This document shows, in pieces, positions 14,136-61,194 of a DNA stretch of 64,000 bases; position 1 is the first letter of the stretch; each line of letters begins with the position of its first letter. The stretch covers positions 2,687 through 66,686 of the forward strand of contig CAILMQ010000013.1 of assembly GCA_903835385.1 (NCBI GenBank), read 5' to 3'. The notes below the pieces were generated by a model, which ran no database searches, was not told the origin of the DNA, and saw only the letters and a program-made list of their open reading frames with translations. The translations under genes were made by a program, and so were the position numbers. The stretch comes from an uncultured Candidatus Micrarchaeota archaeon (GTDB taxonomy: Archaea; Micrarchaeota; Micrarchaeia; Anstonellales; Bilamarchaeaceae).

Positions 14136-14155
14136 CCCGGAGGTTATGGAAGAAT

Positions 14156-31398: not shown

Positions 31399-31436
31399 AT
31401 CGTTAAGTATCTGTAAATAATAATACTTAACAATAT

Positions 31437-31733
31437 TTAAAGATATGCACGTATGGCAAGCACCCACCCGATGCAGAAGGACAGTGTTTCCCTGTCGAAT
31501 GCCTTTTTCGTATAATTGTATTCCGCAGCCTCCTTGGGGAACATGCTTGAGAGTTCGGCATAGCTTAGGGCCGTGAATATGGCGATGGCTGCCGAGATGA
31601 GGAATGCGAGCCAGAGCATGTCCCCGGCGAGCCCGGCTCCGATGGCTATGAGCGCGTATATGCCCGCGCCCAGTATCACGCCTATGCCGTACATCGTTGT
31701 GCTGAATAGCCCGAGCCCGCGTTTGAGCGCCAC
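31437..31733 (-). pseudogene. N-terminal remnant (TM1-2) of an APC-family amino-acid permease, truncated after ~98 codons
   Basis: MALKRGLGLFSTTMYGIGVILGAGIYALIAIGAGLAGD...SYAELSSMFPKEAAEYNY is a canonical APC N-terminus. The reading frame stops exactly where the low-GC island begins. Confidence 0.55.
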
Positions 31734-31785
31734 GATTCATGCTGTGAAATCCCATTTTTAAAAATCTTCCTTCCGAAAGCCCCCT

Positions 31786-38095: not shown

Positions 38096-39592
38096 ATGTC
38101 AAGAAGGCAGACCCCGGGCCCTACAGTGGCTCCCACGTGCGCGGAGCGGCCCCCCAGGCAGAAACCGAAATTCCCAGAACCTGTGCCAGAGCCCCGCAGC
38201 CAGCCGGAGGGCGGCGAAAGCCTGCTCGGGAAAGTGCTCGATGGCAAATACCTCATTATCAAGAAACTCGGTTCAGGCGGCATGGGACAGGTATATCTCG
38301 CCGAGGAACAAGAGGGAGGCAGGCAGTTCGCCATAAAAGTGCTGGACTCATCGGGCCGCCCCGGCCTTTTCCAGAAGGAGGTCATGGCTCCGATAGACAT
38401 CGGGCACGAGAACGTGGTCAACATGTTCGGCTATGGCAGGACGTCCAAGGGGCCCGACGGCTACCCGTTCATAGTGATGGAATACCTTAAGGGCATGGAC
38501 TTGGGCAAGCTGCTTGAAAGCAAGACGCGGCTCGACTGGCCCAGGGCCAGGGACATAATACTGCAGGTCTGCGACGCGCTCCAGGCAGCCCACCAGCAGG
38601 GGGTGGTCCATTTGGACATGAAGCCCATGAACGTATTCCTGGTGGACCGTCCCGGGAAGCCTTTTGTGAAGGTCCTGGATTTCGGCATCTCCAAGCTTTC
38701 CGAAGAAATGGCCGGCGCAGAGGCTTCCTCGGGCAGGGGTTTTATCGGCACTCCGGCATACGCGCCGCCGGAGCAGGCACACGGGTCCAAGGAGTGCGAC
38801 CATCGCTCCGACATATATAGCGTTGGCGTCATGCTCTATGAGATGCTTTGCGGCAGCCTGCCCTTTGTCAGCGATGCTCCGCCCGGCGAACGCGTCAAGG
38901 ATATCATGCGCATGCACGCGGAGTGCGAGCCGCCGCCTTTCTCCACCCACGGTCCTACGACCGGCATACTGGACGGCGTCGAGGCCGCGGTCATGCGCTG
39001 CCTTGCGAAGAAAAAAGAGGGCAGGTTCCAGTCCATGACCGAACTGGCACGGGCGCTGCCCGCCGTAGGAAGGCCGTCGCAACCGGCCCGGGCGCTGGAG
39101 CTGCCGGAGGGGGACCTTGAAACGAGGCCGCGGCTCAGGACGCAGAAGTCTTCGCCCCTGGCCGCAATAATCACAGCCGCGCTCATCACGTTCGGGGCGG
39201 CCGGAGCATGGCTCTACTACACCCGCCACGACAAGGGCGCGGTTCCTGCGGAACAGGACGCGCAGCCAGTTGCCGTTGCCGGGCCAGACGCCTCAGCCGA
39301 GCATCCTGCTGAAAAAAAGAAACATGCTTCTAAGGGCGCGTCCAACGCCGGGCCCGTTTCGCCTGCGAATGCCGGGGAGGCGAAGAAGCAGGCTCCTAAG
39401 AAGCCCCGTGGCCGGGCACACGGAACCGGCACGTCCGAAGCCGAGAGTGCCGCGCCTGCCGAAGATTCCGAACACGGGCAGCAACCCGACAAGGAAGCGT
39501 CCGAAAACGATCCGAATAATAACATTGGCGAGCAGTCCGGTCCGGACGAAGAGGAGCCTTCGAACGAAAGCGAGGCTGAAGAATCAAAATAA
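38096..39592 (+). CDS. Hanks-type (eukaryotic-like) Ser/Thr protein kinase with TM segment and acidic low-complexity tail
   Basis: GSGGMGQVY (G-loop), AIKVL (VAIK), HLDMKPMNV (catalytic loop; non-RD, HLD in place of HRD), DFGISK, GTPAYAPPE. TM segment LAAIITAALITFGAAGAWLYY. Confidence 0.85.
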   Translation: MSRRQTPGPTVAPTCAERPPRQKPKFPEPVPEPRSQPEGGESLLGKVLDGKYLIIKKLGSGGMGQVYLAEEQEGGRQFAIKVLDSSGRPGLFQKEVMAPIDIGHENVVNMFGYGRTSKGPDGYPFIVMEYLKGMDLGKLLESKTRLDWPRARDIILQVCDALQAAHQQGVVHLDMKPMNVFLVDRPGKPFVKVLDFGISKLSEEMAGAEASSGRGFIGTPAYAPPEQAHGSKECDHRSDIYSVGVMLYEMLCGSLPFVSDAPPGERVKDIMRMHAECEPPPFSTHGPTTGILDGVEAAVMRCLAKKKEGRFQSMTELARALPAVGRPSQPARALELPEGDLETRPRLRTQKSSPLAAIITAALITFGAAGAWLYYTRHDKGAVPAEQDAQPVAVAGPDASAEHPAEKKKHASKGASNAGPVSPANAGEAKKQAPKKPRGRAHGTGTSEAESAAPAEDSEHGQQPDKEASENDPNNNIGEQSGPDEEEPSNESEAEESK

Positions 39593-39593
39593 A

Positions 39594-39822
39594 AAAAACG
39601 GGCCTCTGATTGCCCTGTGGGGCAATTCGGTCCGAATTTCCTGAGGCAAAACTCAAGCCTGGAAACTGATTACAAACGAAATTCGGGCCTCTGATTGCCC
39701 TGTGGGGCAATTCGGCCCGTTTTTCCGGAGTCAAGGCTCAGGCTGGCACCTTTCAAAAGAAGAAAAAACGGGCCTCTTAGTGACCTCACTTCGTTCGGTC
39801 ACTTCGCCCCGTTTTCCTTGAG
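39594..39822. repeat. three tandem palindromic hairpin elements sharing aaaacgggcc...ggcccgtttt arms (two with an identical 33-nt core)
   Basis: 39594-39645 and 39673-39728 share cgggcctctgattgccctgtggggcaattcgg. 39763-39822 has the same arms with a different inner hairpin. On the minus strand each is followed by a T-run (candidate terminators). Confidence 0.6.
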
Positions 39823-39860
39823 CCGGCGCTAATGCCGATATCGATAAAAAGAAGGGAAAA

Positions 39861-40007
39861 CGGGCCTGGAGGGATTGTCAGTCTGGCGGACAACGCCCGC
39901 CTCGACATTTGAACCCTCGGCCTGCGGATTAAAAGTCCGACGCTCTACCATTTCAGGCCTTGCCTGAAAAACTTGCCATCAGGCAAGGCTAGCTGAGCTA
40001 CAGGCCC
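39861..40007 (-). tRNA. candidate tRNA-Lys (anticodon UUU) with insertions (putative introns) in the D-loop (~40 nt) and between the T-loop and T-stem (~33 nt)
   Basis: Minus strand: GGGCCTG-TA-GCTC-AG[...]TGGTA-GAGC-G-TCGGA-CTTTTAA-TCCGC-AGGCC-GAGGG-TTCAAAT-[33 nt]-CCCTC-CAGGCCC-G. Acceptor 7/7, D-stem and T-stem are perfect. The anticodon stem has one mismatch. Confidence 0.45.
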
Positions 40008-40575
40008 GTCTGTGCTTGACTTATGCATTGCCGCGCTCGACGCATCGAGCACGCTCGCGGTCGAATCTCGACCGCGACATCTCATTATCCAGTCTTTCGT
40101 TGTTTTACTTCTATGTTCCATGAATACGTGGGCTCCAATATTCTCAAGGCCACGTAAGTCGTTTTCGCGTTTTCACTTTAACGAACGCGCGAAGTAAAGT
40201 TCTACTGAAACTATTTAAAAACATGCACGGCAATAAGAAACGTCCGATGGGAGGTACAAACCAAACACCGAGCGACTGACGGAGCGCGAGTCGAATTGAA
40301 GACGACGTCTCTAAAGAAAACAGTAAGAATGAGAGAACAGAAAGAAAACAAGAGCCAGGTTGGCAGATCGGCTATGCGGCCGCCTGCAGTCGCCCGCTTT
40401 CTTGCGGGCGGCACAAAGCGGCACAGGGTGGTTCAACTCCTCCACCTGGCTTTTTTAGCGTCAGGGACGCGGGCAATCGCCCGGTCCTCGCACGCGAAGG
40501 AACCCGGCGTTTCCCCGGATGGCGAGCCCGGGCGAAGACATCTTTTTAAAAACTTCCACACATCCACTGCCGTAG

Positions 40576-41574
40576 GTGTGCGTCATGCAGCTTCACAAAA
40601 ATAGGATTTACGGAACCGTATCGGACAACCCGCAGAAGCATCCGCTGGAAAGGCATCCTCTTATCGAGCGGATTGGACGCAGAACGAAGCTCGCATTTGC
40701 AGGCGCGGCAGTGGCGGGCCTTGCATTCATAGCCTCGCCACAGAAAGTGAGCGGGCAGGACGATATGCGGTCCATCGCATCTGTTCTGAGCGGTCGTAGC
40801 AATGTGAACGCAAAGAACATCAATGGCAAGACCGCGCTCATGGATGCTGCAGGGGCCGGGCGCATGGGAGCAGTCGTTCTGCTCCTGGAAAACGGCGCCG
40901 ACGTGAATGCGAGGGACAAGAATGACGAGACGGCGCTCACGTACGCCGTAAAGGGCGGATACGCCAAAACAGCCGCTCTGCTCCTGGAAAAGGGCGCTTT
41001 TGTGGATGCGAAGTGCGGATTCACCCGGGTCGTACTCATGTGCGCTGCATCGTCCGGGTACACCGAAATCGTCAAGTTGCTCGTGGAACACGGTGCCTAT
41101 GTCAATAGGAGCGACCTCAGTGGTAAGACCGCGCTCATGCTCGCTGCAAAGGGCGGATACGCCGAAATCGCCGAGCTGCTGCTGAAAGGGCCTGGTGTGA
41201 ATGCAAAGGACGTATCAGGTTGGACCGCGCTCATGTACGCTGCATCTGCCGGGAGCGCAGAAACAGTCTGGCTGCTTCTGGAACATGACGCTAATGCGGA
41301 CGCGAAGGCCAAAGACGGCAAGACCGCGCTCATGAATGCCGCATCGGCTGGAAACCTAATTGCGGTCGGGCTGCTGCTGAAAAAGGGCGCCGATGCGAAT
41401 GCAAAGGACATCCACGGTACGACCGTGCTCATGTATGCTGCTAAGGATGGGCGCATAGAAATAGCCAGACTGCTCCTTAAATGCGGTGCTGATGCGAATG
41501 CAGAGGACTTATTTGGCCACACTGTGAGTGATTACGCCGAAAACCCAAAAATCTACGAGCGCCTGCATGAATAG
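40576..41574 (+). CDS. secreted ankyrin-repeat protein (about 8 ANK repeats) with N-terminal signal/anchor
   Basis: Repeated G.TALM.AA..G...V..LLE.GADVNA units. Hydrophobic LAFAGAAVAGLAFIASP near the N-terminus. Confidence 0.85.
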   Translation: MCVMQLHKNRIYGTVSDNPQKHPLERHPLIERIGRRTKLAFAGAAVAGLAFIASPQKVSGQDDMRSIASVLSGRSNVNAKNINGKTALMDAAGAGRMGAVVLLLENGADVNARDKNDETALTYAVKGGYAKTAALLLEKGAFVDAKCGFTRVVLMCAASSGYTEIVKLLVEHGAYVNRSDLSGKTALMLAAKGGYAEIAELLLKGPGVNAKDVSGWTALMYAASAGSAETVWLLLEHDANADAKAKDGKTALMNAASAGNLIAVGLLLKKGADANAKDIHGTTVLMYAAKDGRIEIARLLLKCGADANAEDLFGHTVSDYAENPKIYERLHE

Positions 41575-43548: not shown

Positions 43549-44844
43549 ATGCATGCTGAAGACTTCGATATAAACATAGAGGACATGAGCAAGATAGAGG
43601 GCCATGCCTCGCTCGAGCTCAAGGTGAGGAAAGGCGAGGTCCAGGACGTGAAGCTGAAGGTATTCGAGAACAGGCGCTTCTTCGAGTTCGCGGTCCGCGG
43701 CAAGAACTACGCCGCAGTGCCGCAGCTGGTGTCGAGGATATGCGGCACCTGCTCGGCCGCGCACCTCATGTGCTCCATAAAATGCATAGAGCACGCGTTC
43801 GGCTTCCAGCCCACGGAGCAGACCAAACTATTGCGCGACCTCACATTGTACGGCGTCAACATCCGCGACCATGCCATGCATCTTTTCCTTTTCGTGCTGC
43901 CGGACCTGTTCGGAAAGGACTCGGTGCTCCAGTTCGCGGATTCCGGGCTGGAGCACAGGCTGCTTCATCGGGCGCTTGCCATAAAGCAGGCGGGCAACAC
44001 GCTTTCGGCCGAAGTCGCCGGCAGGACGGTCCATCCCCCGTTCCCGGCAGTGGGCAATTTCCTCCACGTGCCCTCGAAGGAAAAGGCCAAAAGCCTGATT
44101 GTAGAGCTCAAAGGCGTGCGGGAGAGCGCCATAGAGTTCGTGCATTTGTTCGCTGAAAAGGATTTCGTCTTCGAGATGCCGGACATAGATTTCGTGGCGA
44201 ACGTGAACGAGAACTACAGCTACATCGGGGACGGCATATGCACCCATTCCAAGGGCTTCTGCATCCCGGAGCACGGGTTCGAGAGGTTCTTCAAGGAGAG
44301 CGTGGTGCCCTATTCCCAGGCATCGGGCTTCAGCTTCCAGGGCACGCCCTACATGGTCGGGGCGCTGGCCAGGATGAACATCAACTGCACCAGCCTTAAT
44401 CGGCGCACGCGCGAGGACCTGACCGAGGACAACCTATTCCCCTCGTTCAACATTTATCATAATAATCTGGCCCAGGCGATAGAAATCGTGCATTGCATAG
44501 ACTCGTCCATAGACCTGTTGGAGAACTGCGATTTCAGGCAGGAGCCGATACTGAAAGTCGAGCCCAAGGAATCCGAAGGCGTGGGCGTCATGGAGGCGCC
44601 CAGGGGAACCTTGTATTACCATGGGAAGCTGGACGCCAAGGGGAACTTCACTTATGCGAATCTGGTGATTCCCACGGCCCAGAACCAGGTGCTCATGGAG
44701 AAGGCGGTCGGCAGGCTGGTCCAGCAGCGCGTTACCGAGGACAAGAAACCGAAGCAGATACAGAAGGAGGTTGAGACCCTCATCCGGGCGTTCGACCCCT
44801 GCATGTCCTGCGCCACGCATTTCCTGAAGGTGAAATGGAAATGA
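43549..44844 (+). CDS. [NiFe]-hydrogenase large subunit (group 3-like)
   Basis: N-terminal RICGTCSAAH and C-terminal DPCMSCATH Ni-Fe ligand motifs. Confidence 0.85.
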   Translation: MHAEDFDINIEDMSKIEGHASLELKVRKGEVQDVKLKVFENRRFFEFAVRGKNYAAVPQLVSRICGTCSAAHLMCSIKCIEHAFGFQPTEQTKLLRDLTLYGVNIRDHAMHLFLFVLPDLFGKDSVLQFADSGLEHRLLHRALAIKQAGNTLSAEVAGRTVHPPFPAVGNFLHVPSKEKAKSLIVELKGVRESAIEFVHLFAEKDFVFEMPDIDFVANVNENYSYIGDGICTHSKGFCIPEHGFERFFKESVVPYSQASGFSFQGTPYMVGALARMNINCTSLNRRTREDLTEDNLFPSFNIYHNNLAQAIEIVHCIDSSIDLLENCDFRQEPILKVEPKESEGVGVMEAPRGTLYYHGKLDAKGNFTYANLVIPTAQNQVLMEKAVGRLVQQRVTEDKKPKQIQKEVETLIRAFDPCMSCATHFLKVKWK

Positions 44845-47955: not shown

Positions 47956-48951
47956 ATGGCCATTCTACAAAGACTACCCGCTCCGGATCCTAAGGCCCTG
48001 GAAGCGAGAGGACGGGCGATCTCAGACCACTTTGTGACGCGGATGGAGCCGATCATCAACATCCTCGAGGCAAAACAGATTCCAGGCGTTCGGGAGAACA
48101 CTAATGACAAGACGTGGCTTACTGATAGGAACGCCAAGGCCGAGGACAGCGAGTTCTTATCAGACGCGATGAAGGGCCGCCCGTCCTTCCTCGCACGCAT
48201 AGACGATGATTTCCGCGCCCTGGGCCGTGTCATCTGGGATGAAAGGGCGGTGAGTGCGGCAGCCGACCTCCTGCTTCCGCTTCTGGACGTATCGGAGAGG
48301 ACGTGCTTCGGCTATTACGGCCATCAGTACCGCACCATGCAATACGCCGAGATACTGCTGAATAAGCGGTCCATGTCTAATCGGTCCATGACGGATGCGG
48401 AACAGGCCGCGCAGCTGCTCGGAGCCCTGATGCACGACATAGGCAAGGCCGCAGTGCCAGGGGAGGTCCTGCGCATAAAGGGGAAACTTAGCGATCCGGA
48501 AAAGGAACTCGTCAATCTGCATCCAAGTCATGGCAAGTCCATCCTGCTTGCTGCATTCGCTTCGCTTGCCGAAGCCGGAACCCATATAGCGTATGGGGAT
48601 GTGATAATCGATATCGCATTCAGCCATCATGAAAGATACGGCGATACCGGGGGATACCCGCTGGGCATCCGTGGAACCGAGATATCGGTCGGCGCCAGGA
48701 TTACCGGCTTTTGCGATGCGATGGATAGCATGACAACCAATCGGATATACGACCGCCACCCGAAAACCTTCAAGCAGGCCAAGATCGAAGCGGTGAGGAA
48801 ACTGAACAAGCATTTCAACGGAACAATAGTCGTGGATTTCCTACGTGCTGCGAAAACTAACGAAGTTACGAAAATAATCCTCGATATCATAAAGAGTGCC
48901 GGCGCCATGCCGGAACAGGCGCCTCAGCGGGACCTTATCCAGTCAAAATAG
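47956..48951 (+). CDS. HD-GYP domain protein (cyclic-dinucleotide phosphodiesterase family)
   Basis: LMHDIGK (HD) and HHERYGDTGGYP (HHExxDGxGYP) signatures. Confidence 0.75.
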   Translation: MAILQRLPAPDPKALEARGRAISDHFVTRMEPIINILEAKQIPGVRENTNDKTWLTDRNAKAEDSEFLSDAMKGRPSFLARIDDDFRALGRVIWDERAVSAAADLLLPLLDVSERTCFGYYGHQYRTMQYAEILLNKRSMSNRSMTDAEQAAQLLGALMHDIGKAAVPGEVLRIKGKLSDPEKELVNLHPSHGKSILLAAFASLAEAGTHIAYGDVIIDIAFSHHERYGDTGGYPLGIRGTEISVGARITGFCDAMDSMTTNRIYDRHPKTFKQAKIEAVRKLNKHFNGTIVVDFLRAAKTNEVTKIILDIIKSAGAMPEQAPQRDLIQSK

Positions 48952-49520
48952 AGATTGACTGCAGCACCGTCAGTCGCCCTGTATTTTTCCGCATCGGGAC
49001 CACCTTTGGCTGCAGCACTTCTCGCCGCCTCCTTGACTTCGTCCAGGTCCTGAATCGCGTCTCCCATGATGGAAACCGTCCATCCCGACGCCTCCAGGGC
49101 GGCTCTCACAAGCCCGGCGTCATCCAGATGCGCCATGCTGAACCTCTTGAGCGGCTCACGCCCGATTTCGAGCTTTGGGTTGCGGCAGTGGTCGGAACCG
49201 ACATTGTCAAGGGCTTCGAGTATGGCGGCCTTCACCGCCCGGTCTCCGAAGCCGGGCTCGCTCTCGCGGGCGAGGGCATCAAGGAGGGGCTTGAAAGTAT
49301 GGAGATAACGCAGGTCTCCGAGAGTGGTTGCGGCAGCCGTTCGTTTCCCCGCTGATTCGCTTTCCAGTCCATTCACTGCTTCGGTGCATTGGCGCACCGT
49401 GCCAGGCTGGCTGCGCCGTACCCCCCGTTCGTGCTCCTGGCGCAAAATCGCCTGTACACGCTCCAAACCTATCGGTGGCGGCGTTCTGGATTCGTGACGT
49501 CTGACTGTTGCCGATTTCAT
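48924..49520 (-). CDS. short HEAT/PBS-lyase-repeat protein, paralog 1
   Basis: TLGDLRYLHTFKPLLDALARESEPGFGDRAVKAAILEALDNVGSD repeat units. Confidence 0.65.
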   Translation of the reverse strand: MKSATVRRHESRTPPPIGLERVQAILRQEHERGVRRSQPGTVRQCTEAVNGLESESAGKRTAAATTLGDLRYLHTFKPLLDALARESEPGFGDRAVKAAILEALDNVGSDHCRNPKLEIGREPLKRFSMAHLDDAGLVRAALEASGWTVSIMGDAIQDLDEVKEAARSAAAKGGPDAEKYRATDGAAVNLYFDWIRSR

Positions 49521-49532
49521 TTTGATTCCCGT

Positions 49533-49562
49533 ATTTTATTATGGATTTTGATGTTTAAATAC
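49533..49562 (-). promoter_or_regulatory. conserved promoter block (ATTATGGnTTTTGATGTTTAAA; TATA TTTAAAC in gene orientation) of HEAT paralog 1
   Basis: The same block lies about 30 nt upstream of both short HEAT paralogs. Confidence 0.5.
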
Positions 49563-49621
49563 CTTGTGTTAAGGATACAGGCCCGGCTCCGGACCACGAA
49601 TCCGGCAGGAACACGATTATC

Positions 49622-50200
49622 TCAAGAGCCTCTGACGGCGTTGAGCCAGAGGCCGCTTGCCGCCAAGTCGGTATCCTTATATCCAGCCTCGGCCGCCGCC
49701 TTCATGACATTTTCCATGTCCTCAATCGCTTCGCATCTCAGGCAGGTGTATTCCAGCGCCTTCAGGGCGCTCCTCACCAGCCCGGCGTCATCCAGATGCG
49801 CCATGCTGAACTTCTTGAGCGGCTCACGCCCTGCCGCGAGCGCCACCTGGCCGCAGTGGTCGGAACCGATGTTCCTGAGGGCTTTGAGCATGGCTGCCTT
49901 CACCGCCCGTCCTTCGTCGCCGGGCTCGCTCTCGCGGGCAAGGGCATGGAGGAGCGGCTCGAAAGAATAAATGGAACGCAGGCGCCCGAGTGTCTTCGCG
50001 GCGCTTTTGCGTTCTGCCGCCACCGCGCTTCCGAGCTGGTTCTGTGCCAGCGTGCATTCAAGCTGCGTACTGCCGTGGAGGCGCCGCAGCTCGCGCTTCT
50101 GCCGCGCGAGCACTATCGCGTATACATCCTCCAATCCCTTGGGCGCTACGGGCCAGTGGCGCCTGGCGGCTAGTTTGTCATTCCGGCTCATGTATGCCAT
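49622..50200 (-). CDS. short HEAT/PBS-lyase-repeat protein, paralog 2
   Basis: TLGRLRSIYSFEPLLHALARESEPGDEGRAVKAAMLKALRNIGSD. About 60% identical to paralog 1. Confidence 0.65.
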   Translation of the reverse strand: MAYMSRNDKLAARRHWPVAPKGLEDVYAIVLARQKRELRRLHGSTQLECTLAQNQLGSAVAAERKSAAKTLGRLRSIYSFEPLLHALARESEPGDEGRAVKAAMLKALRNIGSDHCGQVALAAGREPLKKFSMAHLDDAGLVRSALKALEYTCLRCEAIEDMENVMKAAAEAGYKDTDLAASGLWLNAVRGS

Positions 50201-50340: not shown

Positions 50341-51381
50341 ATGAAAAGATTTGTGATACTGTTTCTGATTCTAGGGTTGTTTATTGCTGGCTGTACTCAA
50401 CAAGCCGAAACAAAAAATATAGGTTCAAACAAAACCATCTCGAACGAGACTCAAACCCAGCCGAATCGAACCGTTCCGCCTCAACAAGCACCCATACAAA
50501 CATACGCCTGCCCGGACGGAACGATTGTCACAAACTTGACAAATTGCCCAGCACAAACAGCTAATAACAGTCAAACAACTTCAGAAAACACCAGCATAAC
50601 AACATATGTATGCTTCGATAATTCGACAGTGGACGACTCAACAAAGTGTCCTCCGGCTCCGACCATCAATGTTTCTAAAGATTATTGCAGTGATGGAACC
50701 AAAAAGCTCGCTTGTTCTATAACAAAGCCCATTTTTTGTGACGTCAGTCTCGAACTCGTAGAGAAAGCCAGCAGATGCGGGTGTCCGGCGAATTCGGATC
50801 CTTATCAGGATACATGCTTACCGAGATGTTCCGACGGCACACATTCTGGTTCGTGCAGTTCTACTAAACCCGAAAAATGTTATAACGGAACATTGACAGA
50901 TGTTCCTGCGAGTTGCGGTTGCCCGGTAGGGTATAAATATGATGGTTCAACTTGTGTTGTTCATGTTATGTCACCCGAGGAACTTTTCGTGAATACCTCG
51001 GTCTTACAAAACAGGTATGCTGGATTGACTAACTTCGATGTAACTGTTGTTCGAGCCGGTTATTATGAAGAAACATCATTTTTAACTACGGAGCGATATA
51101 TTCGACTTGATATAAACATTAAGAATCGTGGAGACAAACCAGAATATCTATTTGCTTCTCATATGTCGCTTGTCGATAGTAATAACCACCAATATTCGGA
51201 AACTTATGGCGGCACTTTTGAAGGTGGGGAATTTCAATCGGGAGTAGAAAGTAGTGGGTCGGTTTTATTCGATTTAGGAAGTTCTACGATGCCGGATGAA
51301 GTAACCTTGCACATCGATGATGGGTACGATAATAACTTCAAAATAATCGTTAAAACAGTTATAATTACATTAAAGAACTAG
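50341..51381 (+). CDS. Cys-rich secreted lipoprotein (lipobox IAGC) with repeated CPDGT modules
   Basis: MKRFVILFLILGLFIAGCTQQ signal/lipobox, at least five CP(D/A)GT/CGCP repeats. Low-GC gene. Confidence 0.6.
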   Translation: MKRFVILFLILGLFIAGCTQQAETKNIGSNKTISNETQTQPNRTVPPQQAPIQTYACPDGTIVTNLTNCPAQTANNSQTTSENTSITTYVCFDNSTVDDSTKCPPAPTINVSKDYCSDGTKKLACSITKPIFCDVSLELVEKASRCGCPANSDPYQDTCLPRCSDGTHSGSCSSTKPEKCYNGTLTDVPASCGCPVGYKYDGSTCVVHVMSPEELFVNTSVLQNRYAGLTNFDVTVVRAGYYEETSFLTTERYIRLDINIKNRGDKPEYLFASHMSLVDSNNHQYSETYGGTFEGGEFQSGVESSGSVLFDLGSSTMPDEVTLHIDDGYDNNFKIIVKTVIITLKN

Positions 51382-51426
51382 TTCGCCTCTCGACATGTCT
51401 AAAAATCTTGGGAAAGTAACAAATAC

Positions 51427-51804
51427 ATGGAAAAAGTCGTGATGCTGATTCTGATTTTTGGTTTACTCTTTTATGGTTGCACAAATCAAATCACCGGAAA
51501 TGTTTTGAATCAACATGCTGCAGTTGGTTGTTGGGTTTCAAACAGTTTGGCTATTGCAAAGATTGAGATAAACTCTGACGATACATTCGCAGCGTATACG
51601 CAAAATCCTCAGACTGGAGCATATTCAGTGGCATATAAGGGCAAATGGGTTGCAGAAAACGAAACGACGATTATAATGTCATATCAACTAAATAACGATA
51701 TTGTGAATCAAACAGCGACATATGTAGAAAGTACCGATTCCGTAGTAACATCAATATTAATCCCAATGGTTGGTCAGTTCCCAGAAACATTGTATAGATG
51801 TTGA
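51427..51804 (+). CDS. small lipoprotein (YGC lipobox), paralogous signal peptide
   Basis: MEKVVMLILIFGLLFYGCTNQ. Its upstream block is nearly identical to that of the 50341 gene. Confidence 0.45.
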   Translation: MEKVVMLILIFGLLFYGCTNQITGNVLNQHAAVGCWVSNSLAIAKIEINSDDTFAAYTQNPQTGAYSVAYKGKWVAENETTIIMSYQLNNDIVNQTATYVESTDSVVTSILIPMVGQFPETLYRC

Positions 51805-51901
51805 ACATGTATGAAAGTTATACCCAGAGCGCGCTCTGGCTCCGTTTTGGAGGGGAACGAGACGCCCTTACATTTAAATCGCTTGACGTTGTAGTGAAAT
51901 T

Positions 51902-53164
51902 ATGAAATTTGGATTCGTTGTATTACTTATTTTCGGACTTTTTATTGCTGGTTGCACCCAACCGACTACTCCACAACCAAAACAGACATATTTATGCCCT
52001 GATGGAAGCATTGTAACCCAGATTTCAGATTGCCCCAAAGCAATACAAACATATTCCTGTCCAGATGGTTCAGTAGTCACAGACATGTCTTCTTGCCCGA
52101 AGCAGACCTGTCCAGATGGAACCGATTACGGTTCTTGTTCTAATCTAAAGCCAATGTTCTGTCAAAATGGTCAGTGGATACCTAATGCCTCCGCGTGTGG
52201 TTGTTCCAGCGGATACGATATATCCGGGGACAATTGCGTTCCGCATGTAAATACCTGTAGTGATGGTACGATGTACGATGCCTGCTCTTTAACGAAACCC
52301 AAATATTGCTCTAATCTAGGACTTCTAATTGATGATGCCTCCACATGCGGTTGCCCTAGTGATTACGATACCTCTGGCAATGGCTGTACTCTCCACATAA
52401 GTTCCAACACGAATAGTTATAGTTTTACATCATATGAAAACACAGAGCCGTATTATAGCGCGTTTTGTGATAAAATTGACCCATATGATTTGAGTGTTCG
52501 TAAAGCTGCTGCAGATGCTATTAGAACCGATCCAGGGTCTTATAGCGTCAGTCAGCTTTTTGATATTTATGATTGGGTAATACAAAAGATATTTTATCAA
52601 AATTCTCCTTTAGCGGGTACTCCTTTCCCCCCATCAGAAACTTTAACGACTGCCTCCGGGGATTGCAAAAATCAGGCAGTTCTGATAGCATCCATGGTTC
52701 AAGCAATAGGTGGAACAGCCGAAGTTGTTGCAGATCCGACTTGCTCTCATGCGTATGCTGTAGTGTATTATGGTCCGTCTGGAAGCGATATGAGCTCCTT
52801 TACGCAAGCAGTTGCTAATCATTACGGTTCAAGTGTTAACGTACACTACTTTACCCATAACAATGGCTTCTGGATCATCTTTGATCCGGTTGGTGGAGCA
52901 TATCCTGGAGATACAATGCCCGAATGCAGCGGAAGCGAAGATCGTTATTTTATCAAAAGTTGCTTGGAATGTGTCCACCAATTTTCCAATGAGCCATACA
53001 CGTATGGTGATAGATGCTACTCTCAATGTCCATCTGGAACAATTACAGCGAACAAATATGCCTGCCAGCCTTGTTCAAAAGGCTCTTATAGCTGTAATGA
53101 TCAGTGTCTAACCTGTCCTTCCGGGTATTATATGGCCACCAATTGCAGGTGCTACAAATCTTAA
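51902..53164 (+). CDS. Cys-rich lipoprotein with transglutaminase-like cysteine-protease core
   Basis: MKFGFVVLLIFGLFIAGCTQP signal. CPDGS repeats. SGDCKNQAVLIASMVQAIGG...H...D matches the transglutaminase-like C-H-D pattern. Confidence 0.6.
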   Translation: MKFGFVVLLIFGLFIAGCTQPTTPQPKQTYLCPDGSIVTQISDCPKAIQTYSCPDGSVVTDMSSCPKQTCPDGTDYGSCSNLKPMFCQNGQWIPNASACGCSSGYDISGDNCVPHVNTCSDGTMYDACSLTKPKYCSNLGLLIDDASTCGCPSDYDTSGNGCTLHISSNTNSYSFTSYENTEPYYSAFCDKIDPYDLSVRKAAADAIRTDPGSYSVSQLFDIYDWVIQKIFYQNSPLAGTPFPPSETLTTASGDCKNQAVLIASMVQAIGGTAEVVADPTCSHAYAVVYYGPSGSDMSSFTQAVANHYGSSVNVHYFTHNNGFWIIFDPVGGAYPGDTMPECSGSEDRYFIKSCLECVHQFSNEPYTYGDRCYSQCPSGTITANKYACQPCSKGSYSCNDQCLTCPSGYYMATNCRCYKS

Positions 53165-53246
53165 TTATTAAAAATTTTCAATATAAAGCTTCTAATGGCG
53201 CTAAAATACCTAAAGTTTAACTTAGAAAATATAAAGGCCACGCCCA

Positions 53247-53295
53247 GATTGAACTCGTGACCTCGTCCTCTTCGGAGACAAAAAGCCTTACCTTC
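53247..53295 (-). other. partial duplicate of tRNA-Thr (anticodon, intron-start and 3'-exon segments), candidate attachment-site remnant
   Basis: GGTAAGGCTTTTTG...GGACGAGGTCACGAGTTCAA(A)TCT is shared with the intact tRNA-Thr at 54494-54643. It lacks the 5' exon and the acceptor 3' end. Confidence 0.4.
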
Positions 53296-53845
53296 CTTCC
53301 CTGAACCTTCTCCTGTCCTTTTTTATCTGGGATTTCAGGGCGAATCTTCCATACGGGGTTTCCTTGAACTTCGCGCCTTCTATGCTTTTTACCTTGTGGA
53401 AGACGATTTTATTGCCGTAATACGACAGTATGGCGGCTATCTTCTTCGCCCTGAACGATTTTTTCCTTTCGTTCCTACGGATTCTCTCGGCAAGGTCGAT
53501 TCTGCCGCTGCGTTTTGTATTTACAACGTGAATTTCACCCGAAGGAGTCCATTTCAGGCCAAAAAATTCTTCGGCGGTAGTGCAACTAAAGTAAAAGTCT
53601 CCTGTGGCGAGGTAAAGCTGTAATGCTTTTTTGAGGGCCAGGCTAGGCCTATCGATGAACCATGCTTTTTTTTCTTCCGGTGATGGCACGTAATAAATCC
53701 CTTTAAACGGGGTGGGGAAGAGGTTCAGCGACGCGCTTAAGTTTTTTATCTGGGGTCCGCTCAAACCGTCTTTGATCAACTGACCGAACTGTATGGCCTG
53801 CTTAGGAAGCATTTTCAACGACCTCGTTAAAGAATTTGTAATCAT
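53288..53845 (-). CDS. hypothetical protein, partner of the AbiEii-like gene (possible antitoxin-like component)
   Basis: 185-aa basic protein. Overlaps the upstream nucleotidyltransferase gene by 44 nt. Low-GC. Confidence 0.4.
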   Translation of the reverse strand: MITNSLTRSLKMLPKQAIQFGQLIKDGLSGPQIKNLSASLNLFPTPFKGIYYVPSPEEKKAWFIDRPSLALKKALQLYLATGDFYFSCTTAEEFFGLKWTPSGEIHVVNTKRSGRIDLAERIRRNERKKSFRAKKIAAILSYYGNKIVFHKVKSIEGAKFKETPYGRFALKSQIKKDRRRFREGR

Positions 53846-54392
53846 CTTCGCTTGTAATATACTCCTTTATCCCCTCTAGGTTATCCGGCCGGCCATATTT
53901 GGCAAGTAATTCTTTTACCAGGTCGAATCCCCTGTCCATCTTTTTTAAGATGAAAACGATGTCAAACAGGTCGCGGGCGGCTTTCCTGTTTGCGTATGCT
54001 TCCAGTTTCATCACAAGAAGATCATCCAATGACGCAACGGATAAAGGCACGCCTGAAACTTCGAAAGTCTCTATCTTTTTTATTTTTGCGGTCGGATAAA
54101 AAATCTCTATTTTTATGCTTGTATCCTCAAACTGGACCACAAACTGATTCGTATGGCTGGCAACAGATGTTCTATACCCCTTTTTGGTAAGACAACCCTT
54201 CATCATCTCCTTTAATTTGACTTCATCTCCTTCCAAAGGAACAAAGTCCAAATCAACGCTTACTCTGTGGTTAAGATAGAAAATGGCGAGCGCAGTCCCT
54301 CCAACCAGGATGAGCCGGTTTTGTGCGCATGCGGCAGTGTCGCTGAGGATTTCGAAAACCCGTTTGTATTTGAGGGCGAACTTCTGATTCAT
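53802..54392 (-). CDS. AbiEii/DUF1814-family nucleotidyltransferase (type IV toxin-antitoxin/abortive-infection toxin-like)
   Basis: LILVGGTALAIFYLNHRVSVDLDF matches the GGTAL...R.S.D.DF signature. Confidence 0.6.
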   Translation of the reverse strand: MNQKFALKYKRVFEILSDTAACAQNRLILVGGTALAIFYLNHRVSVDLDFVPLEGDEVKLKEMMKGCLTKKGYRTSVASHTNQFVVQFEDTSIKIEIFYPTAKIKKIETFEVSGVPLSVASLDDLLVMKLEAYANRKAARDLFDIVFILKKMDRGFDLVKELLAKYGRPDNLEGIKEYITSEDDYKFFNEVVENAS

Positions 54393-54493: not shown

Positions 54494-54643
54494 AGCCCTC
54501 GACGAGATTTGAACTCGTGACCTCGTCCTTTTTGCGGCGTTTGACTTGCTTACCTCAGGGCTTTTTCCAGGGTTTTTGCCCGTATAAGGGCGTAAGTCAA
54601 AAAGCCTTACCAAGGACGCGCGCTACCACTGCGCTACGAGGGC
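54494..54643 (-). tRNA. tRNA-Thr (anticodon GGU) with a canonical-position (37/38) intron of about 85 nt
   Basis: Minus strand: GCCCTCG-TA-GCGC-AGTGGTA-GCGC-G-CGTCC-TTGGTA[intron]A-GGACG-AGGTC-ACGAG-TTCAAAT-CTCGT-CGAGGGC-T. All four stems are perfect. Confidence 0.75.
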
Positions 54644-57449: not shown

Positions 57450-58463
57450 TCAGGCTGCTTCGAGCGCTTCCTCGATAAGCCCGGAGAACTTATGTTCACG
57501 GTACATCCCATCCAGGCCATTGCTTCTGACATCCCTGGAAGTCAGGTTTTCAACCGGCTTATGGAGCTTCCATGCAACCCATCTCACTGCCGCTATCCTG
57601 TGCCTTTCATCCTGGAAAAACAAATTCGGGGTCTGCCTTAATTCCCACGGGTAAATCTTCTTGTCCTCAAAGCTGCGCGAATGGCTTTGCGCTATCATCT
57701 CCTGCGAGCTGTAAGCCAATCCCGCCTCTGCCAGGGCGACATATATGGAATGGTGATATTTGGCCTCGATGAGCACTGCCAGGCCATTTTTCATGAAATC
57801 GTCTATGCCAATCTCAAGGGGCCCCTTGGACGTTTTCCAAAGCAGCCATTTCACGGCAGCAGCCCTGTGTTCGGCCTTGTCAAACAGGTTCGCCGGAGTC
57901 GTTTTCATTTCCCACGGGTAGATTTTCCCTGTTTCGAATCCGGTTTCCGCATGCTTCAAAAATTCAGTTTCCGGATAAGCGATGCACATGTCCACAAAAG
58001 CCCGATAAGGGGTGTTTTCGTAATACCTGCCTAAAATGCCGCTCAATCCGGCAACGCAAAATTCCGCCCATTCCATCTTTTTCGGGTCCTCGAAACCTTC
58101 AACGAATTTTTTCAGGACCGCCACTCTCGCCGGATGGTCGCTCCAGTCCGCATGCCACCTGCGGGTCGCATGCCCCTTGTCAAAAAGTTCTGAAGCCTTT
58201 CCTTCCCGAATCAGCGCGTTCACTTTTTCAACAACCACCGCCCTTGCGCTTTTTTTGCTCATGCCGCGTTCCGGAGCCAGTTCATCATATCCACTCTTGG
58301 TGATTTTGTACTGCCCATGCTCCATGAGGAAAATGCTGAGCCATCTCCTGAATTCCGCTGTCTTGTCGAGCTTGCCCGGGTCGCTTAGGTATTTTTGAAG
58401 CCTGGGCGAACTGGTGAAATCCGCCGCAGTGTGCTTTCTTGCCCCTAATTGCCATGATTGCAT
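57450..58463 (-). CDS. hypothetical protein with two internal ~60-aa repeats (KIYPWE..TP.NLF...HR.AAV.W..WK)
   Basis: 337 aa, with its own TATA-like TTTTTATA about 22 nt upstream. Lies immediately downstream of the sigma-like pair on the same strand. Confidence 0.5.
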   Translation of the reverse strand: MQSWQLGARKHTAADFTSSPRLQKYLSDPGKLDKTAEFRRWLSIFLMEHGQYKITKSGYDELAPERGMSKKSARAVVVEKVNALIREGKASELFDKGHATRRWHADWSDHPARVAVLKKFVEGFEDPKKMEWAEFCVAGLSGILGRYYENTPYRAFVDMCIAYPETEFLKHAETGFETGKIYPWEMKTTPANLFDKAEHRAAAVKWLLWKTSKGPLEIGIDDFMKNGLAVLIEAKYHHSIYVALAEAGLAYSSQEMIAQSHSRSFEDKKIYPWELRQTPNLFFQDERHRIAAVRWVAWKLHKPVENLTSRDVRSNGLDGMYREHKFSGLIEEALEAA

Positions 58464-58540
58464 GGTTATACTGTGTCAAATAGGGTATAAAAAGGTTAGC
58501 GGGCAGCTATGAACGGCTATTTTTCTCCGGATGCCTGCTT

Positions 58541-59591
58541 TCAGGTTGCCGGCCCTTCCTCGCGCGGCGCCTCATATCCCCATTCGGCCCGATGCCTCAG
58601 GAGCGTCTCGCGCATTTTCTTCTTGCCTTCGCTTATTATCTGCATCACCCGTTGCCTTGAGACGTGGTTATCCATCCCGATCTCAAGTGGCGTGCGCGGC
58701 TGGCAGCCGCCCACTCCGAACTGGCTCCGTATCATGCCCGCTTCCCTTGGTTTCAGCGTGGCAAGCAGCCTTTCCGCAATCTCCCTTTGCGAAAGCATCT
58801 CCTCAGGCGTCCCGGCGCGCCTGTCCGGAATCATTTCTATGCGCCTCGGCCCGTCCCTCGGGAGCTTTTGGTGCATGCTGATTATCCTGGGCACCGAGGA
58901 GGAATTGATTATGGCGCTCCTTCTGAGCCCGGTCCCATCCGCTATCTCGTCAATGTCCGGGTACCTGCCGGTGAGGCAGAAGCGGGCATTTGAGAATTTT
59001 TCCACCCTGTTGGTCACAAGATGCAGATAGGGCGGCTTCCTGATTTCATTTCCTTCCTCATATACCAGGAGCCACATGGCCCGCTTTGCCCAGTCCATCG
59101 CATAGCTGTAGAACCTGGTGCCCCTTTCCAGGTCGAATTTGGGCATCGCGTATTTCACGATGGCCGCCTCGCCGACCTGGACAAGGTCCTCGACCTTGAC
59201 GCCTGCGGGGCGCCTTATTCCCCTGGCTTTTTTCCAAACCAGCCTGCCAAGCCCCCGCGTGACTATGGTTTCAGCAAGCCCTTTCGCCTCCTCAAGCCGC
59301 TTAAGCTCCTGGCTTATGGCCGCAGAATCCTCGTTTGCCTTGCTGCCCAGCGTTTTCGCCAGTTCTTCCATGCGCGCAAGCGCCTGCCCGTAAATCGCAA
59401 ATAACCTGCGCTCATCCGGTTTGGATATGCGCTCCTTCTTCTCCGCTGCGAGTTGCTGCAGGAACTGCATATCCGGAGTTTTCACAACCGGCCTGTGGGC
59501 ATCGGTCCTGCATTGGACCAGCCGCAGGGCCGGGCGGTTGCATTCAAAAGCAGTGCGAACGATCATTCTTGCTGTGCGCATGGGAAAATAA
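58541..59591 (-). CDS. sigma-70-family protein homolog 1 (regions 1.2/2/3/4)
   Basis: DLVQVGEAAIVKYAMPKFDLERGTRFYSYAMDWAKRAMW...IRKPPYL parallels RpoD region 2 ([44 protein letters not shown]). Region 4-like REAGMIRSQFGVGGCQPRTPLEIGMDNHVSRQRVMQI. Start placed at MRTARMIV downstream of the conserved promoter block (the track ORF starts at 59638). Confidence 0.8.
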
Positions 59592-59593
59592 TT

Positions 59594-59637
59594 TGATAAG
59601 ATTCGCGTATAAACCATCGCATTTTGTGACTGCCACA
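59594..59637 (-). promoter_or_regulatory. conserved promoter block (TATA TTTATACG about 26 nt from the ATG) of sigma homolog 1
   Basis: aataatttgataagattcgcgtataaaccatcgcattttgtg. A near-identical block lies upstream of sigma homolog 2. Confidence 0.55.
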
Positions 59638-59647
59638 ACTCTTCCTG

Positions 59648-61144
59648 CTATGCAGCTTCCTCAGCGCCGATCAGTCGGAGCAGTTTTTCCAGGCTAATCC
59701 GGGAATGTTCCTGATAACAGGGCGGCTCGCCTCCGTAATACTCGCACAAACGTTTCCGGCACCACCTGCGCAGGTTTGATATGGCCTTTGTTTGTATCTG
59801 CCTTGCCCTTTCCCTTGTGAAATCCATCAAATCCCCTACTTCTTCGAGCGTATGCTCTTTACAGCCCACGCCGAATCTCATGCGCAGCACATTCGCATGC
59901 CGCGGGTCCAATCCCGAAAGCAGCTCGTTTACCAATCGTCCCGCTTCTTTGCCGAGAACAGCGTCAAAGGGGCTCGTACTCCTGGTATCCGGAATCAGGT
60001 TTACTCTCTCCGACCCATCCCCATGATTCAGTTTCATGTTCATGCTGACTGTCTGGGGCAATGACAGGCATCTTTCAACCGCGTGCCTGGTGAGCCCGGT
60101 AGAATCCACTAGCTCGTCAATGGTCGGTTCCCTGTTAAACTCAATACGGTATGACCTTGAAACGTTCTCTACCCGGGCAGCCGCCTCATGTATATGGACC
60201 GGCCGCCTGATGTCCCTTCCCTGATCCACTATGTAGCGGCCCATTGCCTGGCGTACCCACCACATGCCGTATGTGGAGAGCCTGTAGCCCATGGCAGGAT
60301 TGAATTTGGGCATCGCTCCCTCAATAAGGGCCATCTCGCCTTCCTGGACCAGGTCTGATTTTGATATGGACGGGGGGTGCCTCATTTTCCTGGCATACTT
60401 CCAGACCATCTCATGCAGTCCCTGGACTACTATGCATTCAGCAAACTTTTTAGGCACTGAAAGCCGCCTGATTTCCAGTTCTAGCAGCCCCGGATTCCGG
60501 TTTGCCGCGCCATCCGCCTCTGCGGGCCCGGATTTCTCTTTTTCCGCATCCCTGATTTCCATAAGATTCATGATACGGGGATGCAGGCGCCGGTAAATGG
60601 TGCAGACAGCGCATTCCAGTTCCCGGGTAAGCACATTCCCCCTCTCGGCAGCGCATTCCCGGAGGTACTTCGCCTCCCAGGCGTTCACAACCATGCCTTC
60701 AATAAGCCCCTTGGCTTTGGAAAGCCGTGCGAGCTCGCTTTTTATGGCTTTGCTCTCTCCGTTTGCCCGGGCTTTCAGCTTCGCATCAAGCTCCTCCATG
60801 CTCCGGATAACCCGAATATATATCGCAAATGTCTCGGCCTCATCTTTTTCTGAAAGTATTCCCCTTCCCTTGCTCGCGAGTCCTTCTAGGTACTCCGTTT
60901 CCTTGGCGCCCAAGGCATGCCTCGGGGTTCCGGTCATATTGCCGTTCGCAGGCTGCCCCATGATGGTCTCAATCTCGCATTTGAATAGCCGGAGCAGTTT
61001 TTCGCGTTCAGAACTAAGTTCAGCGCTGGGCTTTGGGGTATGGATCCGCTTGTCCCCGTGGGCATGAGTATGGCTGGCCCTGGGAGCATAGGTGTGGCTG
61101 GCTTTAGGAGCAATAGTGTGCATGAGTCTTCTTGCTGCAAGCAT
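59648..61144 (-). CDS. sigma-70-family protein homolog 2 (regions 1.2/2/3/4, duplicated 2.1-like helix, Cys/His C-terminal tail)
   Basis: DLVQEGEMALIEGAMPKFNPAMGYRLSTYGMWWVRQAMGRYIVDQGRDIRRPVHIHE (regions 2.1-2.4). LRMRFGVGCKEHTLEEVGDLMDFTRERARQIQTKAISNLRR (region 4.2 HTH). C-terminal WCRKRLCEYYGGEPPCYQEH. Confidence 0.85.
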   Translation of the reverse strand: MLAARRLMHTIAPKASHTYAPRASHTHAHGDKRIHTPKPSAELSSEREKLLRLFKCEIETIMGQPANGNMTGTPRHALGAKETEYLEGLASKGRGILSEKDEAETFAIYIRVIRSMEELDAKLKARANGESKAIKSELARLSKAKGLIEGMVVNAWEAKYLRECAAERGNVLTRELECAVCTIYRRLHPRIMNLMEIRDAEKEKSGPAEADGAANRNPGLLELEIRRLSVPKKFAECIVVQGLHEMVWKYARKMRHPPSISKSDLVQEGEMALIEGAMPKFNPAMGYRLSTYGMWWVRQAMGRYIVDQGRDIRRPVHIHEAAARVENVSRSYRIEFNREPTIDELVDSTGLTRHAVERCLSLPQTVSMNMKLNHGDGSERVNLIPDTRSTSPFDAVLGKEAGRLVNELLSGLDPRHANVLRMRFGVGCKEHTLEEVGDLMDFTRERARQIQTKAISNLRRWCRKRLCEYYGGEPPCYQEHSRISLEKLLRLIGAEEAA

Positions 61145-61145
61145 G

Positions 61146-61190
61146 AATAATAATCTGTTAAGATTCGCTTATAAACAATCGCACTTTGTG
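61146..61190 (-). promoter_or_regulatory. conserved promoter block (TATA TTTATAAG about 24 nt from the ATG) of sigma homolog 2
   Basis: aataatctgttaagattcgcttataaacaatcgcactttgtg. Confidence 0.55.
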
Positions 61191-61194
61191 TTTA

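Follow-up and report, generated by a model that had tools for sequence, protein, structure and literature searches.

Tandem sigma-70-derived genes behind a dedicated archaeal promoter: a fast-evolving family in Micrarchaeota

Sigma factors are a hallmark of bacterial transcription initiation, for which archaea use TBP, TFB and TFE, and we know of neither a bacterial-type polymerase in archaea nor a use that archaea could have for a sigma factor. What, then, could sigma-like genes be doing among the housekeeping genes of an archaeon? The question is raised by a stretch of 64,000 nucleotides (the window in what follows) from an uncultured Candidatus Micrarchaeota archaeon (contig CAILMQ010000013.1 of assembly GCA_903835385.1), in which a preliminary description, made from the letters of the sequence alone, had noticed two such genes in tandem on the minus strand, here called gene 1 (the short copy) and gene 2 (the long copy). 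We found that they belong to a domesticated, vertically maintained, repeatedly duplicated and fast-evolving family that derives from sigma-70 and has a dedicated archaeal promoter.

Judged by their domains, both genes belong to the sigma-70 superfamily. The gene 2 protein matched the Pfam models Sigma70_r2 (38.3 bits), Sigma70_r3 (30.5 bits) and Sigma70_r4 (52.4 bits) above their gathering thresholds (GA; 24, 25.3 and 24.1, respectively), and gene 1 matched Sigma70_r2 (27.6 bits) and Sigma70_r4 (26.6 bits) above the same thresholds; gene 1 had no Pfam r3 match, yet it could be aligned through positions 11-227 of the 238 in RpoD_Cterm. Regions 2-4 were also covered by the NCBIfam models for RpoD, RpoS and the cyanobacterial SigD, with E 1e-49 for gene 2 and E 7e-22 for gene 1. 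However, the equivalog cut-offs lie far above the scores of both (the best RpoD model gave 170 bits against a cut-off of 555), and neither gene is an equivalog of RpoD, the group 1 primary sigma, or of RpoS. Against the sequences of the PDB, phmmer retrieved RpoD of E. coli and Vibrio (E ~1e-39) in an alignment that is nearly free of gaps from region 2 to 4.2, and identity of gene 2 to bacterial group 1/2 sigmas over regions 2-4 is ~40%. An AlphaFold2 (AF2) model of gene 2 (mean predicted local distance difference test score, pLDDT, 64.7; 80-92 in region 2) has the sigma fold, and its top PDB matches in Foldseek were RpoD/SigA chains of holoenzyme structures (prob 1.00). The tandem homologs with regions 2, 3-like and 4.2 of the preliminary description are thus there, and the description did not founder on a lack of significant matches to sigma-70 models or on the predicted structure. 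Its picture of two full-length homologs has to be corrected for gene 1, which has lost several of the residues for promoter melting and recognition.

The two copies are only 34% identical to each other and differ in how much of the bacterial machinery they retain. In gene 2, region 2 reads DLVQEG (E. coli D403, Q406, E407) and STYGMWWVRQA (T429, Y430, W433, W434, R436, Q437), and the complete set of bacterial residues for core binding, promoter melting and reading of the extended -10 and the -10/-35 elements is present. Gene 1 is degenerate at melting and recognition positions (W433D, Q437R, H455Y, R588M) and also carries E407V, with the equivalents of D403 and Q406 kept. Upstream of region 2, neither window protein matched Sigma70_r1_1 or Sigma70_r1_2 of Pfam at E <= 0.1. 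The N-terminal region of gene 2 has no hydrophobic stretch resembling a signal peptide and is predicted to be disordered (pLDDT <50 over aa 1-76); it is followed by an internal duplication, already claimed in the preliminary description, that we recovered by self-alignment of aa 78-152 with aa 153-240 (z = 6.2, a score reached by 0 of 500 shuffles). The duplicated segment reads as region 1.2-like: the NCBIfam SigD models begin to align at aa 159, the position equivalent to region 1.2, and Blastp of gene 2 against gene 1 gives two matches, which fits one copy in gene 1 and two in gene 2. The Cys-bearing C-terminal tail is likewise present in gene 2 and contains a motif, L(R/C)E(Y/F)Y...PP, that is found throughout the family. 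A zinc site formed by the Cys and His residues of this tail is unsupported, as just two Cys are in common, and with one relative only (L014_B, see below). As for gene 1, its start is most likely the ATG at 59581 (MRTARMIVRT...) and not the mechanically listed TTG at 59638, because the former aligns with the conserved N-terminus of the relatives and the latter would make the reading frame traverse the promoter block of the gene itself.

Could these genes be strangers on an archaeal contig? The window encodes Orc1/Cdc6 (7443-8510), an aRF1 with all three eRF1 domains (19967-21175) and DUF63 and DUF2070 proteins, which are archaeal membrane families, and the sigma-like pair adjoins archaeal-type mevalonate genes (mevalonate kinase, isopentenyl-phosphate kinase, UbiX, UbiD and AcnX); a tRNA at 54494-54643 is found by Rfam and missed by ARAGORN, as expected of an intron-containing archaeal tRNA. 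The archaeal surroundings first described are therefore confirmed, and the named relatives to which the aRF1 is closest (65-71% identity) come without exception from Candidatus Micrarchaeota, Micrarchaeia or Bilamarchaeaceae. The exact gene 2 protein occurs in two other assemblies, ERZ1426835 and ERZ1426843, in the gene order of the window (AcnX, UbiD, UbiX, isopentenyl-phosphate kinase, sigma, sigma, repeat protein, endonuclease III, mevalonate kinase), and a 1.57-Mb contig from a related archaeon is syntenic. Codon-usage distance and GC at third codon positions (GC3) of the sigma-like genes fall within the interquartile range of the window, without a break in composition, while foreign islands at 30-32 kb and 50-54 kb stand out. 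Given a gene order that is found again in other assemblies, a native codon usage and archaeal promoters within intergenic spacers of 50-66 nt that abut archaeal genes, the contig is archaeal and neither chimeric nor contaminated.

Relatives of the pair are few. A word-indexed search found only two full-length proteins above the plateau of bacterial RpoD, P0001 and P0002 (35-39% identity), both on contigs of Micrarchaeota metagenome-assembled genomes (MAGs), between phosphoglucomutase and phosphoribosyl pyrophosphate (PRPP) synthetase and near Trm56 and geranylgeranyl reductase genes. The same two were all that could be recovered by a profile-based word search with a 12-member alignment, which was swamped by bacterial RpoD; pattern scans of genomes gave just two Micrarchaeota MAGs, those of metagenomes one distant locus and no close relatives, and a scan of the viruses in IMG/VR no close relatives, only sigmas 26-34% identical. 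When 1.84 billion cluster representatives were searched exhaustively with a profile, on the other hand, a small distinct group at 735, 556, 405, 363, 322 and 273 bits stood apart from a bacterial plateau at ~180 bits, with a few intermediate members that have the same N-terminal architecture. The loci that we fetched fall into several contexts. L001 and L004 are Micrarchaeota MAGs in which the sigma-like gene adjoins Trm56, geranylgeranyl reductase and PRPP synthase, and L013 has this locus in common with them, with two tandem sigma-like genes beside PRPP synthetase. L014 is the syntenic 1.57-Mb contig (ERZ25039480 contig_20877), with two tandem sigma-like genes at exactly the position in the mevalonate cluster that they occupy in the window. 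At least three stand in tandem in L016 and at least two in L019, so that tandem paralogs are found in these as well as in L013, L014 and the window, and L017 has one next to RtcB and Archease.

What these proteins have in common is a start with MLAAR, the motif F.CE.ETI..P, one or two region-1.2-like segments of the form YL..LA...E...F.IY, AMPKF and a one-residue insertion in region 2.2, and the C-terminal motif already mentioned; the N-terminal motifs, the region-1.2-like segment and AMPKF are present in both window genes. All full-length members have retained the multi-domain layout, with a 3.2 linker in which one Asp is nearly invariant. On these sequence comparisons they form a small clade separate from the bacterial sigmas, and all the contexts recovered are archaeal, those with a name being Micrarchaeota (DPANN). 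A neighbour-joining tree of the paralogs hints at old paralog groups, too weakly at such divergence to be relied upon. Between L014 (8001-10780) and the window (58541-61144) the order of the copies differs: the one with the LC.(Y/F)YGG.PPCY tail comes second in L014 and first in the window, and both L014 copies are without the W433/W434 pair. This suggests shuffling or replacement of paralogs at a fixed locus.

Each of the window genes stands behind a near-identical block, as had been seen at the outset (a ~45-bp block with TTTATA ~25 nt from the ATG). The two blocks are ~84% identical, with 25 nt between the TATA hexamer and the ATG in gene 2 and 26 nt in gene 1, whose block begins 20 nt past the stop codon of gene 2. 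The 21-nt core of the block, CACAAARTNNRATNNTTTATA, has two sites in the whole window, precisely the two sigma-like promoters, against a chance expectation of zero. Beyond the window, CACAAA-N9-TTTATA-N4-AATC precedes the ATG in 8 family genes from five genomes (two each in the window, L013 and L014, one each in L001 and L004), with an invariant skeleton CACAAA.T...AT...TTATA....AAT...A.CA that is followed by ~10 variable nt and then ATGC; degenerate versions lie ahead of the distant members in L016, L017 and L019. In the window and all the fetched loci the motif is exclusive to the upstream regions of sigma-like genes. One additional sigma-like gene of L019 (2218-2586, MLAARKG...) begins 10 nt after the preceding stop and has no block of its own, and some arrays, as in L019, may be co-transcribed.

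The block has the marks of an archaeal promoter. Among 46 gene starts of the window TATA-like hexamers peak 27-32 nt before the ATG (counted from the start of the hexamer), and both sigma-like genes fit this geometry, in agreement with the archaeal-style leaderless signals of the preliminary description. This peak indicates that transcripts in the window are mostly leaderless, and with 25 nt between hexamer and ATG the transcript of gene 2 is probably leaderless too. The geometry does not fit a bacterial -35/-10 pair; the block reads as a TFB-recognition element (BRE) and TATA box between further conserved elements. Nor did sigma-70 promoters (TTGACA-N16-18-TATAAT with up to 3 mismatches) appear in excess in the window: of 38 upstream regions 7 had one, where shuffles gave 5.6 +/- 2.1, and this lack of enrichment means that there is no sign of a bacterial-style regulon in the window.

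Table 1. Positions in the window of the sigma-like genes, their parts and promoter blocks, and of the adjacent repeat-protein gene.
Feature	Coordinates	Strand	Description
Promoter block of gene 2	61145..61190	-	Upstream element CACAAAGTGCGATTG at 61190-61176, TTTATA at 61175-61170, AATC..A.CA segment
Sigma-like gene 2	59648..61144	-	498 aa, ATG start; full-length group-1/2-type sigma-70 homolog, canonical residues in regions 2.2, 2.3/2.4, 3.0 and 4.2
Lineage-specific N-terminal region of gene 2, aa 1-77	60914..61144	-	Start MLAAR and motif F.CE.ETI..P; from alignments
Two tandem region-1.2-like helical segments of gene 2, aa 78-152 and 153-240	60425..60913	-	Second copy runs into region 2.1
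Sigma region 2 of gene 2, aa 241-310	60215..60424	-	From Pfam, PDB alignment and residue table
Sigma region 3 of gene 2, aa 320-395	59960..60187	-	Equivalents of H455 and E458; 3.2 linker
Sigma region 4 of gene 2, aa 408-459	59768..59923	-	Helix-turn-helix with equivalents of R584, E585, R586, R588 and Q589
C-terminal tail of gene 2, aa 460-498	59651..59767	-	WCRKRLCEYYGGEPPCYQEH...; low pLDDT
Promoter block of gene 1	59582..59628	-	CACAAAATGCGATGG; TTTATA at 59613-59608, 26 nt to ATG
Sigma-like gene 1	58541..59581	-	346 aa from ATG at 59581; divergent paralog with one region-1.2-like copy
Sigma region 2 of gene 1	59075..59248	-	Pfam
Sigma region 4 of gene 1	58607..58768	-	Pfam
Co-oriented neighbour (repeat protein)	57450..58463	-	337 aa, all-helical; own TATA box at 58486-58491

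The genes change at a speed that sets them apart from everything around them. When the window is compared with L014, five flanking housekeeping proteins are 81-90% identical in amino acids, and the sigma-like proteins 30-46%. The contrast is similar among L001, L004 and L013, where PRPP synthetase, DJ-1, ferredoxin, phosphoglucomutase and Trm56 are 87-98% identical and the sigma-like gene 42-58%. By the Nei-Gojobori method the sigma-like genes have a dN of 0.30-0.74 and a dS of ~1.0-1.4, with omega (their ratio) roughly estimated at 0.31-0.65, and the flanking housekeeping genes have a similar dS (0.34-1.5), a dN of 0.013-0.13 and omega of 0.02-0.14. Across the five loci, non-synonymous change in the sigma-like genes is 6-25 times that of the neighbouring housekeeping genes. 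As estimated from these alignments, the sigma-like genes are under net purifying selection, yet evolve 6-25 times faster than their neighbours, and their open reading frames are intact (340-500 aa) in all the genomes examined. Some unannotated genes near the sigma-like gene of L001, L004 and L013 (in L001, 7007-8047, 12279-13127 and 15158-15889; 46-60% identity, omega 0.3-0.4) evolve as fast as it does; they have no similarity to the repeat protein of the window.

Within this rapid change some positions hardly move. At family identities of 25-45%, D403, L404, Q406, E407, F419 (region 2.2), T429, Y430, R451 and Q589 are almost invariant. The positions for melting and recognition (W433/W434, Q437/T440, H455/E458, R584/E585/R586/R588) are complete in gene 2, P0001, P0136 and P0138, and gene 1, L013_B and the two L014 copies are degenerate there. 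Only one family member has kept N409, from which none of the bacterial matches deviates. The beta' clamp helices are contacted in bacteria chiefly by region 2.2, and it is above all the preferential conservation of this region that leads us to argue for a polymerase-like partner that is still bound.

The explanation towards which we lean, tentatively, is that an ancient acquisition from Bacteria was exapted as accessory transcription regulators that possibly still contact RNA polymerase. The data support a history in which an ancestor took up a group-1/2 (RpoD-like) sigma-70 gene from Bacteria; the gene was fully domesticated, as its native codon usage and its leaderless TATA promoter of the archaeal kind show, gained the new N-terminal extension and the duplicated region-1.2-like segment, and duplicated repeatedly to give the tandem paralogs. 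The proteins would act as accessory regulators of transcription in the archaeal host, binding DNA through the helix-turn-helix (HTH) of region 4 and, in canonical copies such as gene 2, also through region 2, and the near-invariant region 2.2 may dock on the clamp coiled-coil of RNA polymerase, for which here only the archaeal Rpo1/A' could serve. Gene 1 is probably sub- or neo-functionalised, as several melting and reading residues are lost from it and gene 2 keeps them all. The block specific to the family would imply dedicated common control, in its simplest form auto- or cross-regulation.

Several points weigh against this explanation. We know of no experiment or structure that places a sigma domain on an archaeal RNA polymerase, and the corresponding surfaces of that enzyme are already used by TFB, TFE and Spt4/5. 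The omega estimates are rough because dS near 1 is close to saturation, and the high rate together with the loss of W433/W434 in both L014 copies and in gene 1 is compatible with relaxed constraint on a mere DNA-binder. As for the promoter block, the window and L014 are identical in it at 34 of 50 positions, not above the neighbouring promoters (44 of 53 and 31 of 36), and a regulator unrelated to the family could bind there. We nevertheless judge it significant, since it persists across paralogs and lineages at 25-45% protein identity and is exclusive to the sigma-like family.

There are other ways to read the same evidence. The one that survives best, though we consider it doubtful, is that these are plain DNA-binding transcription factors in which the sigma scaffold merely carries an HTH to archaeal promoters, including their own, without any contact to RNA polymerase. 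Most archaeal regulators are bacterial-type HTH proteins, the equivalents of R584, E585, R588 and Q589 in the HTH of region 4.2 are kept in most members, fast evolution and variable recognition residues suggest a diversifying DNA specificity, and around the TATA box lies a conserved block that resembles an operator. What it leaves unexplained is that conservation is highest in region 2.2 (DLVQEG...F), whose contact in bacteria is with the beta' clamp helices and not with DNA, and that the whole multi-domain layout, needless for a simple HTH regulator, has been retained. At the opposite end, the proteins could be true initiation factors for the archaeal polymerase, with region 2 on the Rpo1 clamp coiled-coil, the Y430/W433/W434 pocket aiding melting and region 4 reading an upstream element; this we hold to be unlikely.

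Slightly harder to credit is that the proteins are effectors, delivered by an episymbiont into a bacterial partner or victim to reprogram its RNA polymerase as some phage sigmas do. Gene 2 and several relatives do keep all the residues for holoenzyme formation and for reading consensus -10/-35 elements, their rapid evolution is reminiscent of host-interaction genes, and DPANN archaea exchange material with their hosts. However, the Micrarchaeota hosts that we are aware of are archaea (Thermoplasmatales), the loci of the window, L001 and L014 showed neither a signal peptide nor a secretion system nearby, N409 is replaced, and the melting tryptophans are lost in many paralogs. Still less probable is a functionless, slowly decaying relic of horizontal transfer. 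An omega raised to 0.3-0.65, functional residues missing from some paralogs and the lack of any known partner polymerase of the bacterial kind in archaea would all fit decay, but a relic should not have intact frames of 340-500 aa in each genome examined, an omega below 1, motifs conserved at 25-45% family identity, a dedicated and conserved promoter, native codon usage and duplicates that are repeatedly retained.

That the genes are cargo of a virus or mobile element, an option left by the preliminary description, or that they belong to a defence system (MZA, for instance), appears very improbable. Models for a phage sigma factor (PHROG 351) and for MzaA (PADLOC/NCBIfam) did match, and an 'rpoS' gene has been reported from a DPANN prophage (PMC12647753), but the matches are confined to the generic regions 2-4: that to MzaA reached 162.9 bits against a cut-off of 800, a fifth of it, over model positions 500-713 only, which are the generic C-terminal third. 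The neighbours in the window are isopentenyl-phosphate kinase, endonuclease III and mevalonate genes and not MzaB-E, and over the loci examined the flanks are mevalonate-pathway, PRPP-synthase, phosphoglucomutase and Trm56 genes, with no viral genes, no integrase or capsid and no Mza partners. Composition and codon usage show no break of the sort seen in the islands at 30-32 kb and 50-54 kb, and the sigmas of IMG/VR are not close relatives; we have rejected both MzaA and a phage-encoded sigma group as identities for these proteins. An assembly chimera or bacterial contamination, for which nothing but the bacterial affinity of the domains could be said, is refuted by the same arrangement in three assemblies and in relatives (L013, L014).

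How does an exapted sigma-70 family compare with the systems already known? With bacterial RpoD, RpoS and the cyanobacterial SigD type it has the same order of domains (region 1.2-like, 2, 3 and 4). Unlike bacterial group 1/2 sigmas it is encoded by archaea behind a leaderless archaeal TATA promoter, it lacks region 1.1, its N-terminal extension is new and its region-1.2-like segment duplicated, its region 2.2 has a one-residue insertion, AMPKF and a replaced N409, and it evolves many times faster than the neighbouring genes, whereas primary sigmas are highly conserved. The linker of archaeal TFB, TFE and Spt5 act at the clamp coiled-coil sites of RNA polymerase, and the sigma-like proteins would act at the same sites if they docked on the clamp; they would be analogues of TFB and TFE, with no similarity in sequence, and no TFIIB or TFE domains were found in them in the Pfam search. 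The nuclear-encoded sigma factors of plant plastids, which serve the bacterial-type plastid-encoded polymerase (PEP), are likewise sigma-70 genes run from a non-bacterial promoter system, but we know of no PEP-like polymerase in archaea.

That DPANN archaea have sigma-like genes is known already, a point to be added to the preliminary description. Sigma-70 genes (fam00359) were noted in passing on verified DPANN contigs, especially prevalent in Woesearchaeota, with no anti-sigma factor found and the mechanism unknown (Castelle et al., 2021; PMC8204110). The emphasis there is on Woesearchaeota, the anatomy of the genes is not described, and the Micrarchaeota clade can be compared with fam00359 by description only. 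Two 'rpoS' genes were described in 2025 from viral contigs of DPANN, of which one is a prophage (PMC12647753); they are also divergent sigma-70-family genes associated with DPANN genomes, compared here again by description only, but ours lie between housekeeping genes. Full-text searches of the literature returned no functional study and no description of a Micrarchaeota clade. The clade itself, its anatomy, tandem organisation and promoter, its rate and its pattern of constraint at the level of residues appear to be new.

The co-oriented gene next to gene 1 had been proposed to be part of the same module. It encodes a protein with internal repeats of ~85 aa, two of them clear (z = 24) and one weak, that matched nothing in Pfam, NCBIfam, PADLOC or PHROG and for which single-sequence AF2 gave an unusable model (pLDDT 43). 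The proposal has to be dropped, as the protein has no counterpart in the syntenic L014, nor in L001 or L013.

Other genes of the window deserve a brief mention. A 550-aa protein (32955-34607, plus strand) in which Pfam finds a RelA/SpoT domain (alarmone synthetase; E 7e-10) has the highest GC of the window (0.66; GC3 0.88) and is a second bacterial-style regulatory component of the same archaeal genome. The island at 50341-54392, low in GC (0.41-0.43) and atypical in its codon usage, codes for a transglutaminase-like protein and an AbiEii toxin, ends by the tRNA at 54494-54643 and is probably an integrated element, and an isolated low-GC gene (0.45) at 30046-31899 on the minus strand, coding for a protein with Schlafen AlbA_2 and HATPase_c_4 domains, is likely foreign or related to defence. 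Three tandem paralogs of ~230-240 aa (12618-14842, minus strand), the first of which (12618-13337) had no Pfam match, each have a near-identical promoter (ACAGTTAAATA..TTTCTATAACA), and near-identical upstream blocks were found in two more pairs of adjacent genes, at 48924-50200 (minus strand) and 50341-51804 (plus strand), reading TTTAAACATCAAAA.CCATAAT and GTCTAAAA.TCTTGGGAAAG; duplicated units of gene plus promoter seem to be common in this genome. With ATP-citrate lyase, isocitrate dehydrogenase and aconitase (1226-7292), a eukaryote-like Ser/Thr kinase and an ankyrin-repeat protein (38096-41574) and a NiFe-hydrogenase large subunit (43549-44844), the metabolic and signalling repertoire is rich for a DPANN archaeon.

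A family derived from sigma that has been kept, domesticated, duplicated and diversified in an archaeal lineage needs a job in the archaeal cell. If the archaeal polymerase is involved, it would be a natural experiment on how far the initiation machineries of the two domains are interchangeable; if it is not, the family would be a clear case of a multi-domain initiation factor exapted as a regulator. Were the proteins true initiation factors, promoter selectivity in Micrarchaeota would gain a sigma-like layer above TBP/TFB, the first bacterial sigma to work with a polymerase of the archaeal/eukaryotic type and a direct test of the functional equivalence that has been proposed for sigma and TFB/TFE. 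The family offers concrete material for tests: its genes are short, and both a promoter element and the residues to mutate are defined. Its very fast evolution beside slow housekeeping genes, in obligate symbionts, suggests a link to adaptation to the host.

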